The notes beneath the pieces are model-generated. The model was not told the origin of the DNA. It made no database searches and saw only the letters and a program-made list of their open reading frames with translations. Positions 3,879 to 53,343 of a DNA stretch of 64,000 nucleotides are shown here, in pieces (within the stretch, counting starts at the first letter, position 1; each line of letters opens with the position of its first letter). The stretch comes from Candidatus Doudnabacteria bacterium RIFCSPHIGHO2_12_FULL_48_16 (GTDB lineage Bacteria; Patescibacteriota; Doudnabacteria; UBA920; O2-02-FULL-48-8): assembly GCA_001780035.1 (NCBI GenBank), contig MFEY01000004.1, forward strand, positions 10,399 to 74,398. The letters run 5' to 3'. Both the position numbers and the translations under genes were made by a program.

Positions 3879-3928
3879 CTCTCCTAAAATTCCGAATCAA
3901 GTCCAGAATTGCGTATTTTCAAAAGTAA

Positions 3929-4642
3929 ATGCAAATCAAAACCGCACAATTTGAAGGCCCGCTGGATCTGCTGCTGCAGTTGATTCAAGAGCAGCGTATG
4001 GATATTTCGACCGTTGCCTTGGCCGGCGTAACCGAGCAATTCCTCTCTTACGTTAAAAATTTACAGAATAAAAACCCAGTCAACCTGGCGGATTTCCTGA
4101 TCATTGCGGCCAAACTCCTGGTCATTAAATCCAAATCCCTGCTCCCCAACCTGGAATTGGGCATTGAGGACGAAGAGGCGGCCTTTGATCTGACCGCCCA
4201 GCTACTGACATACAAAAAATTCAAAGAAGTCGCCAAATTTCTGCGGCGATTGGATTTTAAACACAAACAGTCTTGGACCCGGGATGTGGATTTTCTCGAT
4301 AAAATCACATTTGTCCCCGATCCCGATGCCGACATTCAAGCATTGGCCAACAGCCTTAGGACCCTGGCGGCCGAACTCAAAGACATCGTGCGGCTGCCGC
4401 AACAGGTCATGAAAGAGATAGTTTCAATATCGGATAAAATCGCCCATATTCAAAAATTGATTTCGGAAAAGATTGAGACCTCCCTCTCCTCTCTCCTGAA
4501 AGAAGCCAGGACCAAAACCGAGGTAATCGTAACTTTCCTGGCGCTGCTCGAACTGACCAAGCAAAAAGTTTTAACAATCGAACAAAGCGAAGCCTTTGCG
4601 GACATTATGATCAAAAAACGCGAACCAAATGAATCGGCTTAA
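3929..4642 (+). CDS. scpA: Segregation and condensation protein A
   Basis: FEGPLDLLLQLI N-terminal signature. Overlaps scpB. Confidence 0.85.
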   Translation: MQIKTAQFEGPLDLLLQLIQEQRMDISTVALAGVTEQFLSYVKNLQNKNPVNLADFLIIAAKLLVIKSKSLLPNLELGIEDEEAAFDLTAQLLTYKKFKEVAKFLRRLDFKHKQSWTRDVDFLDKITFVPDPDADIQALANSLRTLAAELKDIVRLPQQVMKEIVSISDKIAHIQKLISEKIETSLSSLLKEARTKTEVIVTFLALLELTKQKVLTIEQSEAFADIMIKKREPNESA

Positions 4643-5267: not shown

Positions 5268-5283
5268 TTATCGTTGATAGTGA

Positions 5284-5466
5284 TTAGTAGCTAAAACGTT
5301 CTCTTAGGTTAAAAAGGCAGATCTTGGCCACTTGTTCGACTGCTGCGTCATGGTAAGTCTGCAGCAAATTCTTGACCCAGCGTTCAAATTCGCGAAACGC
5401 CTTTTTACTGTTTACTTGTTGGGCTTTATCTTTAATTTCATAGAGAAGCAGCAGTGGTGTAGACAT
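5284..5466 (-). CDS. Small helical hypothetical protein
   Basis: 60-aa ORF with a plausible amphipathic sequence; no homology recognised. Confidence 0.25.
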   Translation of the reverse strand: MSTPLLLLYEIKDKAQQVNSKKAFREFERWVKNLLQTYHDAAVEQVAKICLFNLRERFSY

Positions 5467-5540: not shown

Positions 5541-6545
5541 TCACTCTATTTTACCCGAAAGCAAGTCCTTGGCCAGGGCCCACATTCCCCAATCATTATG
5601 CTGTTTGGCCAGCCAATACCACCATTCCACTCCCCAAAGATAATTGTCATGAAACCCAGCGGCTTTCGCATATTCGATATTCTCGCGGAAGACCTTGGGA
5701 TTCATAAGAGCCATCTGAGTATTAAGGTCAATTTTGCTGACTGAGTCCGAAAGCCAAGGCTCGGCCTGCAACTCCACGCCGATCAGATTGCGCATGGGCG
5801 TAAAAGTTTGAACGACCCCGGCCTTGATTCGAAAAAATGCCGGCGGCAGAGGGTAGCGAAAATATCCGGTAAAATCATTGCGGACCACCCGATACATAGT
5901 TGTTCCAAACAAGTCCGCCCCGGTGGTTGCGGTTGGGAGCCAACGGCCAAACTCCCCGCTATCGGCCACCATAACGGGCCGGCTATCCAATGATTTCACC
6001 AAAGCTATTTCTTCTTTCAAAAAATCCCGGTTGGCTTTTGGGCACATTTCGCCAAATCCAAACAATGGTTCATTCTGAACTTGCCAAATTTTAACCGCTT
6101 CAAAAGATTTAAAATGATTAATGGCCGCAACGACCATTTCAAGCTCAGCATTCTGCTGCTCAAATTCCGATAAGTCCCTGGCCCACGAAGGGACGTGGCA
6201 CTCGGGCCAACGGGGTTGTTTTTTACCGACGACCAAAATGACTTCGGTATCATATTGTCGGGCTAAATTTAAAAAATCATCAATTTCGGCAAAATCATAG
6301 GTGCCTCGCTGGCGTTCGATCTGGTTCCAATAGGCACTAAGGCGAATTTTGTCCGGTTTTAAATCGGACAAGATATCCAAATACAGCTGCCGAGGATCGA
6401 ATCCCAGTTCCCTAGCCCGGGATTGAGAAAAATTCAGGCCCCAGCTAAACTCAGTAGCCGGTTGAAATTGATGATAGAAAAAAATCCCAGCCGCCAGGAA
6501 AACTAAAACGATAAAACCTGATAATTTTAAATACTTATGCTTCAT
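5541..6545 (-). CDS. Membrane-anchored glycoside hydrolase, clan GH-A (GH5-like) TIM barrel
   Basis: N-terminal TM, QVQNEP catalytic-acid-type motif, W/Y-rich barrel. Confidence 0.55.
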   Translation of the reverse strand: MKHKYLKLSGFIVLVFLAAGIFFYHQFQPATEFSWGLNFSQSRARELGFDPRQLYLDILSDLKPDKIRLSAYWNQIERQRGTYDFAEIDDFLNLARQYDTEVILVVGKKQPRWPECHVPSWARDLSEFEQQNAELEMVVAAINHFKSFEAVKIWQVQNEPLFGFGEMCPKANRDFLKEEIALVKSLDSRPVMVADSGEFGRWLPTATTGADLFGTTMYRVVRNDFTGYFRYPLPPAFFRIKAGVVQTFTPMRNLIGVELQAEPWLSDSVSKIDLNTQMALMNPKVFRENIEYAKAAGFHDNYLWGVEWWYWLAKQHNDWGMWALAKDLLSGKIE

Positions 6546-6651
6546 CCCGTTAGAAATAGTGATTAGTTAATAATTAGAATCTTTATACTGGAACCCGTTC
6601 AGTTCTATTTTGGTCATAAATCAAACTACGTAAAATTTCTAACGGGACTCA
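6546..6651 (-). repeat. Inverted-repeat element copy a (CCCGTTAGAAAT...ATTTCTAACGGG). It fills the gap between the transporter stop and the GH5 ATG
   Basis: The first 26 nt are identical to copy b at 52458. The arm abuts the ATG. Confidence 0.7.
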
Positions 6652-7542
6652 TAGACTAAGAAATACCAAGCCAGTTGTAATTAAAGCGATGGCAATAATT
6701 TTTTGCGCCAGAATACTGCCGGTAATATCTTCTTTCAAAATCTTGGGGTAAAATTCGGAAAACACGATACCCAACAGCAGCACGAACACAAATTGAACCC
6801 CCTGGAGAGCATTAACAATCACAACGCTGCCGAGCGCTATCGCGTAATTTTGAAGCAAACTGCCGGCGGCGCCGGCCATATGGGACGAATAAAACAAAAA
6901 TTTACTTTGTTTTGATGTCTGTCTCGGGGCGGCCATAATATCATGGCGGGTTTTCGGGCTGAGCAACAATAAGGCTGCCCCCAGCGCTAATCCCAACCGA
7001 GTCCAAATCAAACCGGAAATAAAATTAGTTTCATTATATATATATTTGGTCAGAATGAAGGAGACTGCAAATAAAAATGCGGCCAGGACCATATCGCGCC
7101 AGCCCAAGGCGTGCCAGCCGGTCTTGGTCTTTTTGAAATCAATCACAACGGCGCCAATCACAAGTAAAGCAAACGCCAATAGCTGGGTGTGGTTTAGGCT
7201 ATCCAGGCCGGTAAAGTAAGCCAAAATCAGAGTAAAAAACGGAACCAGCCCGCCCTCAATCGGCAAAATTCTCGAAATGCTGGCGCGCTGGATCGACAAA
7301 TAGAAAAAATATAATGCAAAGGTAAACGCGATACCGGCGAGCGCGGCAACCAGATAATTGGCCGGAGTCAAGGCGTGGATGCCGAAGGGCAATAATGCCA
7401 GAACGGCCAGACTGCTGATTCCCACATAAAAAGCATAAACCCCGGGGTTGCCGATTCTTTTGGTCAGCAAAAATTTATCAGCCACGCCATTAACGGCCAA
7501 TAAAATATAAGCGATAACGGCAATCAAAATCCAGGAGACCAT
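6649..7542 (-). CDS. DMT/EamA-like 10-TM transporter
   Basis: Duplicated 5-TM hydrophobic architecture. Confidence 0.5.
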   Translation of the reverse strand: MVSWILIAVIAYILLAVNGVADKFLLTKRIGNPGVYAFYVGISSLAVLALLPFGIHALTPANYLVAALAGIAFTFALYFFYLSIQRASISRILPIEGGLVPFFTLILAYFTGLDSLNHTQLLAFALLVIGAVVIDFKKTKTGWHALGWRDMVLAAFLFAVSFILTKYIYNETNFISGLIWTRLGLALGAALLLLSPKTRHDIMAAPRQTSKQSKFLFYSSHMAGAAGSLLQNYAIALGSVVIVNALQGVQFVFVLLLGIVFSEFYPKILKEDITGSILAQKIIAIALITTGLVFLSL

Positions 7543-8852: not shown

Positions 8853-8927
8853 TGGTGACCTCACAGGGAATCGAACCCTGATTCTAGCGTTGAGAACGCT
8901 ATGTCCTAACCGTTAGACGATGAGGCC
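8853..8927 (-). tRNA. tRNA-Glu (anticodon CTC)
   Basis: Cloverleaf reconstructed by hand: acceptor GGCCTCA/TGAGGTC, T-loop GGTTCGATTCC, anticodon loop TTCTCAA, encoded CCA. Confidence 0.8.
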
Positions 8928-8955
8928 TTAATCTACAGCTAATTATACGATTTTA
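8907..8955. repeat. Direct repeat copy A (22 nt of the tRNA-Glu 5' end plus about 27 nt of flank)
   Basis: TAACCGTTAGACGATGAGGCCT is identical at 10668-10689; the flank is about 75% identical. Confidence 0.7.
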
Positions 8956-10667: not shown

Positions 10668-10716
10668 TAACCGTTAGACGATGAGGCCTGAAATTAGCTT
10701 AATTATATCGTTTTGT
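10668..10716. repeat. Direct repeat copy B of the tRNA-Glu 5' segment
   Basis: See copy A. Confidence 0.7.
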
Positions 10717-28837: not shown

Positions 28838-28934
28838 CCCCGTTAGAGATAACCAGTTTAGTATCTACACCGGGTGTTTATTTATCACTAAGTCATTGAT
28901 TAAATGCCGCTTTTGCAGATAATCTCTAACGGGG
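28838..28934 (-). repeat. Inverted-repeat element copy c (CCCCGTTAGAGAT...ATCTCTAACGGGG), 11 nt upstream of the CAP gene ATG
   Basis: Same arm family with a G variant; TGCTATAAT promoter about 60 nt upstream. Confidence 0.6.
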
Positions 28935-29954: not shown

Positions 29955-30505
29955 CGCTTCCCTCAGCGCCTTATGCGACAGGATATCCGATCAAATGATC
30001 GAACTCGACCTAGTTAATTTTCCAATTCACCCCCCACACCAGAAAACAGTGCGATGGATGCCCCAGACTTCACCAGTCTAGAAAAATATCTTAAAACGAA
30101 AACATTTTTCACGACTTGTGGTGTGGGGGTTAACTTGGAATCAAAGTTAATTAGACGCGATCCGAATGGTCCGAATTTTCATCCGAATTACCCGAATAAC
30201 TGCTGTTTAAAACTCTTTTCGGCTTCAGATAAGCTGCTCTGAAATTTATTATTAAGCCAAGTTCCGCATTAGCCGCCCGGAGATATCTTTGCATGCATAC
30301 CTGGAAACAAATGCCGGTTATTTGATAAGACTCTTTGGGAAATATTATTCGTGGCATTCGGATGCATTCGTGGATTAGGATCGCGTTTATATCCAGGAAT
30401 CACGATAAGCAAGACAAAAAGACCAAGGCCCGAAATATCGGTTTTACTTGGCAAATCGACAATTGAGCTTGTCTTTTGTTTCCATCAAATTTTATCGTTA
30501 TATAT

Positions 30506-30514
30506 ATTATAGCA
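30506..30514 (-). promoter_or_regulatory. Extended -10 TGCTATAAT (minus strand) at the start of a roughly 550-nt leader
   Basis: Motif match. Confidence 0.4.
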
Positions 30515-30592
30515 CATTTTGGAATCGCCGTCAATGAGCCAATAAAAAACGGGTCAACGGTAAGCTTTGTCATGCTTTCCGTTGACCCCACG

Positions 30593-32092
30593 TCAGATGG
30601 CGAACAGGCGTTCGGCGATCCCGAAGTGGATGCCGACGTCGTCCCTCACCGTCAGCCGGTTACCCTGAGGATCTTCGCCGGTGCCGCACGGAATCGTGCG
30701 GACCTTACCATCGGCGAACATGCGGTAGAGCTTGTCGCGCAGCGCGTCAGCGACCTGGCCCCGGTTCTCTCCCGGCTTGACGGTCGCGTTGCCGATCAGA
30801 TACGCGACACGCGTGCCATCCGAGATGAAGGTCCCATCCTTGTAGCCCATCCCCGCCGGCAGCAGGGTCACGTTGTTCTTCTTGAGCCCCTTGAGATCAA
30901 GCATCATCGGCTCGCCCGGCTTGTGGCGCCAAGGGTAGCCTTTGTATTCCCCGCCCGGGCCGGGACCGGTGACGAGCGCGATAGTCATCGCGATCTGGTC
31001 ATCCCTCACATCCGGCTTGACCTCGTCGAGGTGCCCTTCGAACATCGCCATGATCAGCTGGCCGAAGTTGCGCACGAGGCGCAGCATGACCTGGAACTCC
31101 GGTTCGGGCGGCCGAATGTTGATCTCGCAGACGCGAATCGACGCCGGCTTGCCGAACTCGTTGAAGAACACCATGCATCCCGGATACAGGATGCAGGGCC
31201 GCAGGATGCCGCGGCGCCTCATCTCCTCGATCAACGGCCGGAAAACTTGCTTTACCGCCATCTCGAGCAGTTCCTGAGAATGCACGGGGTGCGGCCCCAG
31301 GCTCGCCATGCCACCGGTCACCGGATTGTTCCGGCTGATCTGACCGGCGAACCGGCCCTGGTAGTCCATGGCCGTGGGCAGGATCTGGAAGTTGCCGTGC
31401 ACGTCGACGAGGGCAGTGAAGCTGACCTCGATTCCCGCCATGTAGGACTCCATGAGCAGGGGCCAGGGAAGACCCGGCCCAAGCAACTTCCTGTAGGACT
31501 CGGCGTAATCTGCCATCAGCGTCTCGTAGACTTCGCGGATCTCCCACGGGCTGCCGATGAACCGCGCGCCTTTGCCCGCCGCCTGGAACGGATACTTCGC
31601 ATAGGCGCCGCCGTGCTGTTCCAGGTATCGCAGACACGCTCTGAGAAACGGCTGGTAATGCCTGGCTTCGATCGCAACCCAGTCGGGAGCCACCGGCACC
31701 CGCGCCGAAGCGCAGAGTTGTTTGCATGTTACCTTGTCGCCCTCGATGAATGAAGCCGCCGCGGTCAGGCCGGCGACCCGGTCCCCGAACCCCGCTTCGG
31801 TCATCCGATCCACGAAGCCGTCGATCTGCAGGGCTTCCGGCATCGGCACCACGTAGTCGATTTCGTCGTCTGACAGCGCGCGCAGCACACGCGCGGCGTA
31901 ATCCTGCACCGAGGAACCTCCCGGCACCTCGAGGAAATCAACTGGCCAGCCAGCCAGTTCGGCATAGGGCTTCATTGCGGGCATGCCACGAATCACCACT
32001 CCCTGGAACTCGCCTTTCTCGCCGCTACGGCTGACAGTCAGTGCCGAAAGAAACGTGCGGGCGTCAGAGCCTGCAAATCCGATTCGCTTCAT
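30593..32092 (-). CDS. ATP-grasp ligase of the PurD (phosphoribosylamine--glycine ligase) family, with a long N-terminal extension
   Basis: CEINIRPPEPEFQVMLRL aligns with PurD EFNCRFGDPETQPIMLRM; AAGKGARF aligns with AAGKGVIV. High GC. Confidence 0.6.
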   Translation of the reverse strand: MKRIGFAGSDARTFLSALTVSRSGEKGEFQGVVIRGMPAMKPYAELAGWPVDFLEVPGGSSVQDYAARVLRALSDDEIDYVVPMPEALQIDGFVDRMTEAGFGDRVAGLTAAASFIEGDKVTCKQLCASARVPVAPDWVAIEARHYQPFLRACLRYLEQHGGAYAKYPFQAAGKGARFIGSPWEIREVYETLMADYAESYRKLLGPGLPWPLLMESYMAGIEVSFTALVDVHGNFQILPTAMDYQGRFAGQISRNNPVTGGMASLGPHPVHSQELLEMAVKQVFRPLIEEMRRRGILRPCILYPGCMVFFNEFGKPASIRVCEINIRPPEPEFQVMLRLVRNFGQLIMAMFEGHLDEVKPDVRDDQIAMTIALVTGPGPGGEYKGYPWRHKPGEPMMLDLKGLKKNNVTLLPAGMGYKDGTFISDGTRVAYLIGNATVKPGENRGQVADALRDKLYRMFADGKVRTIPCGTGEDPQGNRLTVRDDVGIHFGIAERLFAI

Positions 32093-44097: not shown

Positions 44098-44099
44098 AA

Positions 44100-44890
44100 A
44101 CTATAAGTTCCTTTCTTCGGCTACTTTCGTCATCTGATTGTCGGATTTCCACGGTTCATTGTCTTGATCCGTAAAAACAGGCCCGAAACCATCAGCCACC
44201 GCCTTAGCGGGGTCCCGCCTACTATTTAGACCAATAGCAGTGGCGGGAAAAGTATGAATGATTAATAGCCAAACGAGTTTAACATAAAACCGTCCGGAAA
44301 GCAAGACAGGCAAGAAAAAAGAGGCGCCAAACGGGGAGCCTCGAACGCTAAGGGGGGTGACCAGGCTCGCAGAATCGCTACGAACCAAGGCGGAGTCGGT
44401 GGCAGCGCCCGGTGAGTCAAAACGCGTTGACCCAGTCACTCCCCCTCGTTTCCGTTGTTTCCGGCCCTGAATGTGTTCGTGTAAGTTTTGTCTTCACCTG
44501 TTATGAAGCCTTACAAGAACAGTCAGCCAGTCAGTGTGTCACATCACCGCCGGTTTTTTGACCTTCCGCAACGGAAATTTAATTCCCTCTTTATAATTCG
44601 GGTAAGCCGGACCAAAGTTAGCTAGGCGCTCCCAAAGCGCCCCGGCCCACTCCGGTCCGGCTCCTCACTTGCCGATCCTTCCCCTCCAATGGTGCGTCAA
44701 AACAGCATCAAGCTCTCCGGCTGCAAAAAATTGCCGGGGCATCAGATAACTGCTCTGAAACAGCTGTGTCGAAGCTGAGAACCCTAACAGCTGTTTTTTC
44801 CTCGCCGAGGACCGAACAAGATCGTAAGTAAGCACACCCTAACAATTTTTGGCCGGACTGTCAATCCCGCTTGACCGGATCGGGTTTTTG
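44100..44890. other. Roughly 0.8 kb GC-rich noncoding region with many stable nested hairpins; candidate structured RNA of unknown class
   Basis: No credible ORF in any frame. GC visibly above the local background. Plus-strand intrinsic terminator at 44758-44810. Confidence 0.35.
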
Positions 44891-44914
44891 TGCTAGAATT
44901 TTTGAGCTATGAAT

Positions 44915-45020
44915 CCCATTAGAAATTCGAATGCATTCAAACTACTGCATAAGAATTATAACCAGCGGGGAATAATACAAGCTAAGCCAATTTACTAACT
45001 AATCAAAATTTCTAAACGGG
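44915..45020 (+). repeat. Inverted-repeat element copy d (CCCATTAGAAAT...AAATTTCTAAACGGG) forming the rpmE 5' UTR and abutting the ATG
   Basis: -10 TGCTAGAAT at 44891. Shares the TAACTAATCA subterminal segment with copies a and b. Confidence 0.6.
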
Positions 45021-45269
45021 ATGAAAAAAGACTTACACCCCCAATATTTTACCAACGCGAAGATTGTTTGCGCCTGCGGCAATACCTTTGTTACCGGCTC
45101 TACCAAGCAAGAGCTGCATGTTGAAATTTGCGCCAACTGCCATCCGTTCTACACCGGCAAACAAAACCTGATCGACGCTGCGGGGACGATTGATAAATTC
45201 AAGAAAAAAGCGGCCAAGAGCACGGAACTGAAAGCCAAGAAAATTTCTAAAAAACTCCAAGCCGCTTAA
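45021..45269 (+). CDS. rpmE: Ribosomal protein L31
   Basis: MKKDLHPQY...CxCG...CxxCHPFYTG. Confidence 0.9.
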
Positions 45270-51356: not shown

Positions 51357-52457
51357 TCAGTCAAACCTGACCGCCCGTTGCCGCGCAATCACGCTTTGCA
51401 CCAGGCCCAAAGCGAGCATAGTGGTAATGAGCGAGCTGCCGCCATAACTGAGCAGCGGCAATGGAATGCCGGTCACTGGCATCAAACCGACATTCATCCC
51501 AATGTTGATTAAAAACTGGATCAAGAGCATAAAAAATATCCCCAGGGTCAGATACATCCCAAAGTTATCGCGGGCCAGCTTGCAGGCTTTAATGATTCGG
51601 GCAAACATGACGCCAAACATCGTTAAAATAAACAAGCTGCCGACCAGGCCCAATTCTTCAGCCGTGGAAGCAAAAATGAAGTCAGTTTGCCGCTCCGGCA
51701 AAAACTTAAGCTGGGATTGCAGGCCGCGGCCGACTCCCCGGCCGGTCATGGAGCCTGACCCGACCGCGATGATTGATTGAATGACATTGTAGCCCCGGCC
51801 GCGGGGATCGGCTTGCGGGTCCAAAAACGTATAGATCCGGTTTTTCTGGTAATCATGCAGCACAAAAAACCAGCCGAACACGCCCAAGACCACGGCGATC
51901 AAAGCCAATATGGCCAGATGTTTTTTGTTCATTCTGGAAAACAGCAACATGCAAAGCCAGGTCAAAAATAGGACCAATGAGGTCCCCAAGTCCGGCTCAA
52001 TTAAAATCAGGCCGGCCGGGACAGCGACGTATACGGCGGAGAGCAGGACATACCAGAGACTCTTAATCTTTTCGCCTGATTGATCCAGGAATTTGGCCAT
52101 AATGATGACCATAAACAGCTTGGCAAATTCCGCCGGCTGCAAACGGAAAATCCAGAGGTCAATCCAGCGAGTCGAGCCCTGAATGTTTCGGCCGAATAGC
52201 CAGACCGCGATCAGCAGCAAAACCGTAATTATATACAAAACTCCCGTGGTTTTTTTTAGCTTGCGATAATCAAAAAACGCCACGGCAAACAAAGCCACAA
52301 AACCCAGGACGGCGTAAACCGACTGGCGACCGAGCAAATTGGTTGGGCTATTGAGTGTTGTGGAATAAATCATCAACAAACCCAAAACGAGCAGCAGAGA
52401 ACTGCTGCTGAAAATATAAAGATCAAAGTATTTGAATCCCGAGAGCCAATTTCTCAT
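51357..52457 (-). CDS. ftsW: SEDS family peptidoglycan polymerase FtsW/RodA
   Basis: 10 TM; SIIAVGSGSMTGRGVGRG and FIFASTAEELG motifs. Confidence 0.85.
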   Translation of the reverse strand: MRNWLSGFKYFDLYIFSSSSLLLVLGLLMIYSTTLNSPTNLLGRQSVYAVLGFVALFAVAFFDYRKLKKTTGVLYIITVLLLIAVWLFGRNIQGSTRWIDLWIFRLQPAEFAKLFMVIIMAKFLDQSGEKIKSLWYVLLSAVYVAVPAGLILIEPDLGTSLVLFLTWLCMLLFSRMNKKHLAILALIAVVLGVFGWFFVLHDYQKNRIYTFLDPQADPRGRGYNVIQSIIAVGSGSMTGRGVGRGLQSQLKFLPERQTDFIFASTAEELGLVGSLFILTMFGVMFARIIKACKLARDNFGMYLTLGIFFMLLIQFLINIGMNVGLMPVTGIPLPLLSYGGSSLITTMLALGLVQSVIARQRAVRFD

Positions 52458-52524
52458 CCCGTTAGAAATAGTGATTAGTTAATTTATATTATTTTTACAA
52501 TCAACGCAGAATTTCTAACGGGAC
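52458..52524 (-). repeat. Inverted-repeat element copy b; fills the gap between the stop of gene 52525-53343 and the ftsW ATG
   Basis: TGA-GTCCCGTTAGAAAT...TAACTAATCACTATTTCTAACGGG-ATG. Confidence 0.7.
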
Positions 52525-53343
52525 TCATTGCTGGTCAAAAGGCGATATGCCCGCATCGGTTGATAAAATATTACGGTCAAAAATATTTATTTCCGGGACA
52601 ATCTCAGCCCGCACTGCGCCGGTAACCGGGCTGGCCCAAACATACTGGAAGGTCCGCGTTTCGCCGGACCGGACCTGATTTAGATAAGTGAAATTCACTC
52701 CCACCACTTCATTTTTGGCATTATAAAGCGCCACTGGCAGATTGATTTGATTGATGGTAAACGCGCTCAGGTTCCGGATTCCCGCTGAAACCAAGGTCGC
52801 ATCATTGCCGGTTTTAAAACTGACGCGCTCCAATTCAACGGTCAGACTCAGTGCCGGCTTGCGCAAGAACTCCGTGGCCTCCAAAGTTACCTGTATGGTC
52901 TCCGGTTTCTGTTGGGAGGTGAAACGAGAAAACACGACCAGTTTTTCCGAAGCCGGGAGAATAAAAACTGCACCGGCAATCCGGTTGATCAAAGTGCCCC
53001 CCAAGGTTTTGAATTCCACGGTGTAACGCTGGGCGGGAGTGCCCCATTCCAAATTGACGTTTTTGATCCTAATATATCCGGAGTAAGCGTTCTGGCCGAG
53101 GCTGAAAATTTTCTGATCCATAACCGAGAGCGGCACGGTGACGGCTTCGGTGTAAATCACCTGTGGCGGATGATAACTGCTCACGATTGCCCGCGTCAAC
53201 AAAAATTTGGCCGTATAAAACATCGGAATGATAGCAACAATCGTGATGATCAGGGCATACCACCATCCCCGGCCGGTTTCGGTCAAAAGATCGCCGGCAA
53301 TCAACCCCCATTCTTGCAACCGTTCATTTTTATTTAAAGCCAT
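52525..53343 (-). CDS. N-terminally anchored hypothetical protein (beta-rich periplasmic domain)
   Basis: Single TM, no recognised domain. Confidence 0.45.
   Translation of the reverse strand: MALNKNERLQEWGLIAGDLLTETGRGWWYALIITIVAIIPMFYTAKFLLTRAIVSSYHPPQVIYTEAVTVPLSVMDQKIFSLGQNAYSGYIRIKNVNLEWGTPAQRYTVEFKTLGGTLINRIAGAVFILPASEKLVVFSRFTSQQKPETIQVTLEATEFLRKPALSLTVELERVSFKTGNDATLVSAGIRNLSAFTINQINLPVALYNAKNEVVGVNFTYLNQVRSGETRTFQYVWASPVTGAVRAEIVPEINIFDRNILSTDAGISPFDQQ

Follow-up and report, generated by a model that had tools for sequence, protein, structure and literature searches.

What are the four inverted repeats that stand against start codons in a 64,000-nucleotide (nt) stretch of Candidatus Doudnabacteria bacterium RIFCSPHIGHO2_12_FULL_48_16 (contig MFEY01000004.1, positions 10,399 to 74,398; hereafter the window)? 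A first-pass annotation of this DNA had proposed a translational control or RNA-processing module, a 5' stabiliser hairpin, or a MITE (miniature inverted-repeat transposable element) with a preference for start codons. We found all four to be copies of a MITE, a DNA transposon that is non-autonomous. They are short and non-coding, carry terminal inverted repeats, are flanked by a duplication of fixed length and occupy sites that are filled in some genomes and empty in others. The last of the three proposals, a MITE with a preference for start codons, is supported by target duplications, four empty sites, many copies in many genomes and an approximately 18-fold excess at starts. Surviving copies are concentrated at A|TGAR start codons, both here and in many genomes that are poor in Shine-Dalgarno (SD) motifs. 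The element is of a known kind; what is unusual is that the same 13-bp ends occur across phyla and that start codons of SD-less genes are precisely rebuilt. Our whole account, a MITE that rebuilds start codons, whose hairpin would be opened by ribosomes and which would be mobilised by a DDE-type enzyme, is in our judgement likely to be correct.

Four insertions and their empty sites

An arm search placed paired arms at 6546/6646, 28839/28933, 44915/45019 and 52458/52522 (copies c1 to c4). The four copies are where they had been annotated, and the search found no further arm pair in the window. The two-arm pattern used for genome scans matches c1, c2 and c4, and shuffled versions of the window gave 0 matches. 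The arms had been described as perfect and about 12 nt long. Paired arms are indeed present, but the repeat measures 13 bp, and the arms of c3 are imperfect, with one mismatch and a 1-nt bulge. The additional outer pair is T...A in c1, c3 and c4 and C...G in c2. Since this pair is part of the 13-bp repeat, the A of the adjoining ATG is the last base of the element itself. Three genes start at this terminal base, namely the glycosidase-like gene at 6545, rpmE at 45021 and rodA/ftsW at 52457, in agreement with the reported abutment of three copies on ATG. The shared subterminal segment was likewise found, as TAACTAATCA(C/A) adjoining the ATG-proximal arm in c1, c3 and c4.

Copy c4 is 67 nt long and lies on the minus strand (52457–52523; arms 52511–52522 and 52458–52469); with its last base, at 52457, it provides the A of the rodA/ftsW ATG. 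Upstream it is preceded by TGAG (52524–52527), the TGA of which is the stop codon of a 272-aa gene, and downstream it is followed by a perfectly matching TGAG (52453–52456). Copy c1 (103 nt, 6545–6647, minus strand; arms 6635–6646 and 6546–6557) is built in the same way and, according to the open reading frame (ORF) listing, separates an EamA-family gene from a GH42-like glycosidase gene. Its terminal T is at 6647, and its terminal A at 6545 is the A of the glycosidase-gene ATG. The upstream TGAG (6648–6651) contains the stop of the EamA-family gene (6649–7542). The downstream TGAA (6541–6544), identical to it at three of four positions, provides the TG of the ATG and the first two bases of codon 2. 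In both copies the upstream TGA, annotated as directly abutting, ends 1 nt before the 13-bp repeat.

Copy c3 (108 nt, 44914–45021, plus strand) has decayed arms (44915–44926 and 45008–45020; CCCATTAGAAAT and ATTTCTAAACGGG). Its flanking TGAA duplications are intact (44910–44913 and 45022–45025). The rpmE ATG takes its A from the last base of the element at 45021, and the upstream duplication together with A44909 preserves the original rpmE ATG, which by our reading of the sequence now begins a 29-codon upstream ORF. A promoter-like site precedes it (44871–44899, plus strand), consisting of TTGACC, a 17-nt spacer and the extended -10 box TGCTAGAAT, which ends 9 nt before the upstream ATG copy. 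Copy c2 (97 nt, 28838–28934, minus strand) has C/G ends and lies in the 5' untranslated region (UTR) of a CAP-domain gene, whose ATG (28826) is 11 nt away, the spacer that had been reported. Its arms (28839–28850 and 28922–28933; CCCGTTAGAGAT/ATCTCTAACGGG) carry A>G and T>C changes on both sides. Two earlier statements did not hold. The extended -10 box of the CAP gene, TGCTATAAT (29017–29009, minus strand), is situated about 67 nt upstream of c2, so that c2 does not make up the whole CAP 5' UTR. Furthermore, the supposed related fragment near 5270, the 12-mer ACTAATCACTAT at 5277–5288, belongs to the host and is conserved there at the stop codon of a 60-aa ORF. It can be discarded as a relic of the element, as the relative at locus L131 has CTACTAGTAACTATCAA at this place and no arm nearby (L numbers denote the sampled loci).

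In related Candidatus Doudnabacteria genomes none of the four window sites holds the element, and the flanks are joined there with a single copy of the 4-mer; near-identical strains have the same copies. The empty sites are ATGA stop/start overlaps (rodA and the glycosidase gene), a leaderless-type promoter before ATG (rpmE) and a 5' UTR (CAP gene). The rodA site is empty in seven loci (L124, L126, L128, L129, L130, L139 and L140). Its junction reads CAACAATGAGAAGCTGG / CAACAATGAGAAGC in L124 (RodA 87% identical) and GCCATGAGGAATTGG / GCCATGAGGAAT in L126 (RodA 76% identical), both with the ATGA overlap. The window junction equals exactly this ATGA site plus T-CCCG...CGGG-A and a second TGAG. 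For rpmE, four relatives without the element (L126, L128, L129 and L130) have the promoter directly before the ATG, with TTGAC, a 17-nt spacer, TGCTAnnnT and 9 nt followed by ATGAAAAA. The window shows the same promoter, then A-TGAA-T, the element and A-TGAA-AAAAG. At the CAP gene, the corresponding A-rich leader of L169 contains no element. Across the seven RodA-bearing loci L124–L130 (about 110 kb) no family member was detected, and the window copies are therefore lineage-specific insertions.

The c1 site is empty in L132 (CTTATGAGAAC, with the ATGA overlap) and filled in L131, which is the closest relative here and a locus of the same genome as L124. Here a 101-nt copy (3898–4000) has perfect arms and a perfect TGAA duplication. 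The interior of this copy matches c1 in the opposite orientation (z 6.0 versus 1.6), which can be either a second insertion at the same site or an inversion between the arms. A strict orientation relative to the gene is ruled out by this inverted copy.

Other insertions were seen at the same kinds of site. In L125 (9860–10000; also in L137 and L138), from another Doudnabacteria, the ATGA junction at the 5' side of rodA is filled by a different inverted-repeat element, CCCAGTAATACAACTTCGAT...ATCGAAGTTGATATACTGGG, which measures about 135 nt and has ATGA on both flanks. A third, unrelated insert of 172 nt with nested palindromes, ATCCCGGAATCCCGC...GCGGGATATCCGGGAT, is found at the same rodA junction in L127 (9829–10000). 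These cases suggest that junctions of the rodA type are generally permissive or attractive to palindromic elements. The spacer between rpsB and rpmE measures 923 nt in the window (44098–45020, c3 included) versus 211 nt in L126, and other relatives have different small ORFs there. A 112-aa ORF in this spacer (44101–44439, minus strand) had no Pfam match, and Rfam returned nothing. The segment 44098–44908 looks like a variable islet.

A family that rebuilds start codons

Scanning species-representative genomes with the two-arm pattern yielded at least 119 loci, and together with the window 140 copies were analysed. Judged by their record titles, the loci belong to Patescibacteria (many classes), Planctomycetota, Omnitrophota, Deltaproteobacteria, Gammaproteobacteria, Nitrospirota, KSB1, WOR-3 and Stahlbacteria. 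Among the matches listed, the family thus covers more than 100 bacterial species in at least eight named groups. A search of viral contigs gave only 3 matches. Copies range from 27 to about 390 nt (the longest tallied being 386 nt) with a median of 90 nt, and they share no conserved ORF.

The terminal inverted repeat is 13 bp long and reads (T/C)CCCGTTAGA(A/G)AT, with (T/C)CCCGTTAGARAT as the end sequence of the element, while the interior varies freely. In the 136 copies used for this comparison the repeat is complementary in 96–100%, and pairing ends sharply past position 12, with position 13 down to 38%. The base that borders the CCCG core on the outside is also paired, as C-G in 71 copies and T-A in 58 (7 have another combination), and is part of the element. 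Interiors are unrelated or only about 70% alike, even inside one genome. Minimal versions of 27–36 nt consist almost entirely of the arms and a 3–4-nt loop (L092 6817–6843 and 7024–7050, L134 3963–3989, L100 3979–4014), and arms alone seem to be enough to persist or spread. In L103 a lone 3' arm (2038–2049, CACATTTCTAACGGG) directly abuts the ATG of a NAD-dependent epimerase-like gene. As a 5' arm is absent from the surrounding 4 kb, this resembles half an element left by a deletion.

Comparison of both flanks over all copies revealed the target duplication. Positions -5 to -2 on the left equal +2 to +5 on the right at 69–83% per position, with all other registers at chance level. The 4-bp repeat is perfect in 77 of the 140 copies, compared to 8.1 ± 2.6 (maximum 19) after permutation of the right flanks. 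The duplicated 4-mers vary (TGAA, TAAA, TCAA, TCCA, TGAG, TGGG, CCCG and others), and because they differ between copies they represent a duplicated target and not a fixed motif. The target consensus is R-TNNA-Y, in which R...Y is the flanking consensus. A duplication of 5 or 6 bp is ruled out by the C/G-ended copies with a perfect 4-bp repeat: the next base matches on both sides in 6 of these 37 copies and on neither side in 13.

How closely, then, is the element tied to start codons? In 52 of the 140 copies (37%), the terminal purine is the first base of an ATG or GTG that leads into 80 or more open codons. Within these loci only 2.1% of all TNNA sites, and 9.4% of those with TGAR, would pass the same test, which corresponds to an excess of about 18-fold over all TNNA sites. 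Insertion at A|TGAR keeps the old ATGA upstream, as seen in 29 of the 52 start-abutting copies, where it goes on acting as the TGA stop of the preceding gene or as the AUG closest to the 5' end of the transcript; the terminal purine together with the duplicated TG forms a new ATG or GTG. T/A-ended copies generate a new ATG. C/G-ended copies generate a GTG whose G comes from the element (ATGAAC|...|GTGAAx). Both reading frames stay intact. Among genomes of the Candidate Phyla Radiation (CPR), 32 of 45 T/A-ended copies are at starts versus 8 of 36 C/G-ended ones.

The absence of an SD motif had been called unusual, yet it is ordinary in this genome, where an SD-like motif (-18 to -3) precedes only 8 of 47 long ORFs. 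Many ORFs of the window have a TAnnnT box 6–11 nt before the ATG, which suggests that leaderless or short-leader genes are widespread. Within the family, 23 of 51 cases have a -10-like TANNNT that precedes the upstream ATG copy by 5–10 nt (shuffled flanks: 10.3 ± 2.7, maximum 21 in 2000 shuffles), and 12 of these 23 are extended -10 boxes. A -10 box at such spacing is a signature of leaderless or near-leaderless transcripts. Given the SD-poor genome and the upstream -10 boxes, the landing sites are therefore SD-independent starts, namely ATGA-overlapped and leaderless-type genes. Integration preference and purifying selection are probably both behind the positional bias; avoidance of coding sequence alone seems unlikely to explain an excess of this size.

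Proposed mechanism, rival explanations and known systems

Folding predictions for the four window copies gave 13–14 bp stems with -19 to -34 kcal/mol and z-scores of -2.1 to -5.8. The predicted stem takes in the A of the start codon, and its U by G-U pairing. How could a gene remain translated with such a stem on its AUG? In the mRNA, the arms would pair as a 13–14 bp stem covering the A(U) of the new start codon, and a ribosome would be located just 5' of it, in the act of termination on the preserved UGA or of initiation on the AUG kept close to the 5' end. Because of its mRNA channel and its helicase activity, a ribosome at the base of a stem must unwind the 5' arm. Such a ribosome would melt the 5' arm and release the start codon for coupled initiation or re-initiation. 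Melting of the hairpin by an upstream ribosome appears to be the likeliest route to continued translation. SD-less start codons would then be a safe harbour for insertion because the adjacent ribosome would open the stem. The enzyme that moves the element is probably a DDE-type cut-and-paste transposase acting in trans.

Several observations weigh against this account. No transposase or autonomous partner was found within about 4 kb of any copy (about 0.9 Mb in all), and all-against-all clustering of the 956 ORFs of the loci returned housekeeping families only, with no recurrent neighbour protein family. About 45% of the copies have no perfect duplication, among them c2 with its flanks TTCA and TAAA. 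An empty rodA allele of the same species had 0 matches in metagenomes. The arms co-vary at positions -1, 10, 11 and 12, with 11 and 12 judged in copies unconstrained by the search pattern. The pair at position 10 is A-T in 102 copies, G-C in 31 and mismatched in 3, compared to about 49 mismatches expected from independent choice. In addition, 19–21 of 52 gene-oriented interiors contain (A/G)CGGG, which repeats the 3' end, versus 2 with its complement. Neither the covariation nor this strand bias would obviously be predicted for a purely selfish DNA element. Finally, the stop of the upstream ORF lies within 12 nt of the main AUG in 13 of 37 cases and earlier in the others. This ORF always opens with M-x-P-V-R-N/D, since the repeat is open in that frame. 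The idea that it must stop at the main AUG is unsupported, and tight stop-start coupling is no general requirement.

Some of these points can be read in more than one way. The missing duplications fit with age or with recombination between copies. Co-varying arms could reflect transposase variants that need identical ends, or a requirement for the hairpin. The internal (A/G)CGGG may serve as a binding site in a subterminal position, or may pair with the 5' arm as an alternative partner in the RNA. Arm covariation and the strand bias of the internal motif could both reflect a constraint on an RNA or on a single-stranded DNA hairpin. Arm pairs 300–6000 bp apart with matching duplications were considered as an autonomous element and dismissed, as separate small copies explain them; L098, a locus with five copies, contains housekeeping genes only. 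A bolder version of our account holds that the family is specialised on SD-less starts, in leaderless as well as in ATGA-coupled genes, that its transposase reads the start context R-TGAA-Y and that hairpin and internal decoy form an obligatory gate opened by ribosomes, a coupler and switch of translation that is mobile and reusable, for streamlined CPR bacteria. We regard this version as rather doubtful. If true, each insertion would make a leaderless or overlapping gene dependent on the upstream ribosome, through re-initiation or through bypass from one duplicated AUG to the other.

Could the hairpin primarily be a cis-regulatory RNA of the host, such as a translational switch, a processing site or a 5' stabiliser, with its mobility incidental or ancient? 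The sequestered A(U) of the AUG, the covariation at four arm positions, the strand-biased internal motif that could pair with the 5' arm, and the prevalence at starts of T/A-ended over C/G-ended copies in CPR genomes all speak for it. So does a structured subfamily of 63–69 nt in six CPR genomes (L044 3732–3794, L057 5434–5496, L056 1150–1215, L116 1617–1682, L020 972–1037, L061 2236–2304). Its members have a covarying second helix, GCCCGC/GCGGGC or, in L061, CCUCGC/GCGAGC, with UUCG-type hairpins, an asymmetric 1-nt/3-nt internal loop and fold z-scores of -3.9 to -5.7. However, the host genes are unrelated housekeeping genes with no common function, presence varies and all four window sites are empty in close relatives, and L131 carries the same subfamily at the same site in opposite orientation, which together argue against a primary host function. 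The divergent interiors within one genome and the arm-only versions point the same way. No Rfam family matches: a gathering-threshold scan of the window returned five tRNAs only and nothing at the elements, an E-value scan of c1 found no family at the element, and an E-value scan of the six structured copies gave no match. We consider a primarily regulatory role unlikely.

The arms' concerted changes are also what a folded single-strand substrate would show. A palindrome of the REP/REPIN or IS200/IS605 type, copied as a DNA hairpin by a Y1 (HUH) transposase, would further account for the hairpin being the sole conserved feature, for the minimal arm-only copies and for the failure to find a DDE transposase in neighbouring ORFs. 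Like the present element, RAYT-mobilised REP/REPIN sequences are hairpin-forming extragenic repeats of similar size with minimal palindromic units. REPINs, however, are not known to have target duplications and carry a conserved GTAG head, and HUH single-strand transposition is not known to give a target duplication or a palindromic target of this kind. The 4-bp duplication and the palindromic R-TNNA-Y target stand against this explanation, as do arms that are not palindromes in themselves and the lack of any recurrent RAYT-like gene beside the copies. Membership in REP/REPIN is rejected on the duplication and on the missing recurrent neighbour gene, and the wider explanation appears quite improbable. 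Still less probable is ribosome bypass, in which the ribosome would leave the mRNA at one copy of the duplicated AUG-NN and land at the other, skipping a compact hairpin in the manner of phage T4 gene 60 and the mitochondrial 'byp' elements. It would suit this idea that 29 of 52 start-abutting copies have the same AUGAR before and after a stable hairpin, and that the upstream AUG is at the predicted 5' end of leaderless-type transcripts. Yet the data are explained by ordinary initiation at the ATG or GTG that the element rebuilds, the landing codon becomes GUG in C/G-ended copies, and many copies lie away from start codons. We give hardly any credence to an integron attC-type or other site-specific recombination site. 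A length range of 57–115 nt, conserved ends and free interiors fit, and GTTAGA/TCTAAC resemble the attC core sites GTTRRRY/RYYYAAC. But attC reads RYYYAAC...GTTRRRY, and here the polarity is reversed (GTTAGA...TCTAAC, with GTTAGA on the 5' arm reading inward), which rules out membership. In addition, the copies are single, lie between housekeeping genes without arrays and have target duplications.

A start-codon-rebuilding MITE thus remains our preferred reading, and it has a number of known counterparts. Correia/NEMIS of Neisseria, ERIC of enterobacteria and RUP of pneumococcus are likewise short, non-coding, multi-copy elements with terminal inverted repeats and a target duplication; they vary in presence between relatives, are co-transcribed with neighbours and form a long RNA hairpin. 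These elements are known only from a genus or family each and duplicate TA. The present element differs in having the same 13-bp ends over several phyla and a 4-bp R-TNNA-Y duplication, and in that 37% of its sampled copies lie exactly on a start codon, which the element rebuilds. MIRUs measure 40–100 bp, are intercistronic in polycistronic operons, have filled and empty sites and are flanked by tetranucleotide direct repeats (PMC3184786). The intercistronic position, the tetranucleotide repeats and the filled and empty sites are shared with our element. MIRUs differ in that their terminal repeats are imperfect at best, that only mycobacteria have them and that they are often in tandem, and no start codon rebuilt by their end has been described. 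With single copies, perfect inverted ends and non-mycobacterial hosts, the element is not a MIRU as characterised in PMC3184786. The Neisseria REP2 and Borrelia IR repeats lie directly upstream of genes and contribute the ATG initiation codon (PMC3184786). They lack terminal inverted repeats and supply, besides the ATG, a promoter and a ribosome-binding site, whereas the present element brings no SD motif and a single base of the start codon.

The piggyBac superfamily and the bacterial IS1380 family share with our element a 4-bp duplication of a T...A target and ends starting with CCC. The piggyBac repeat is CCCTAGAAAGATA and its target TTAA, and piggyBac proper is excluded since no TTAA was found among the perfect duplications. 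IS1380 transposases have been used to root piggyBac as its outgroup from prokaryotes (PMC10813416). As no transposase was found near the copies, this resemblance is a lead and no more.

On the RNA side, the MS2 coat-replicase arrangement and ATGA gene pairs resemble our sites in that an upstream stop directly precedes a helix hiding the downstream AUG. The empty sites are -4 overlaps, and -4 (ATGA) overlaps are tied to termination-reinitiation coupling. Such overlap-linked coupling is the subject of PMC10666635. Unlike in classical unmasking, the helix here is made by a mobile element, and any coupling would have to span 60–115 nt. Literature searches on the arm sequences, on CPR MITEs and on palindromic repeats with leaderless genes found no description of the element.

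The element has practical consequences for gene calling in uncultivated lineages. It adds 60–115 nt and a spurious upstream ATG before true starts, sometimes turns ATG into GTG and creates short ORFs that begin with M-x-P-V-R-N/D. For SD-less translation, it marks leaderless and ATGA-overlapping starts as tolerating sizeable insertions and offers a natural experiment in which such translation has to deal with an AUG held in a stable helix. That over 100 species of at least eight named groups have nearly the same 13-bp ends implies that a transposase is widespread or that bacteria of groundwater and sediment have repeatedly exchanged the element by horizontal transfer. Engineering could also profit from a transposon end that restores a start codon and leaves a duplication of no more than 4 bp.

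Further features of the window

Two unrelated features were observed in the window. A 22-nt repeat, TAACCGTTAGACGATGAGGCCT, is present at 8909–8930 and 10670–10691, its first copy lying inside a tRNA gene (8856–8927, minus strand), and it may be a duplicated tRNA fragment. An integrase island bounded by this repeat is ruled out, as the 446-aa ORF between the copies has only a weak GrpE match. A GC-rich stretch contains a TTG-initiated, arginine-rich ORF of 425 aa (30476–31753, plus strand) opposite a 499-aa ORF on the minus strand (30592–32092); the 425-aa ORF is probably a shadow ORF.

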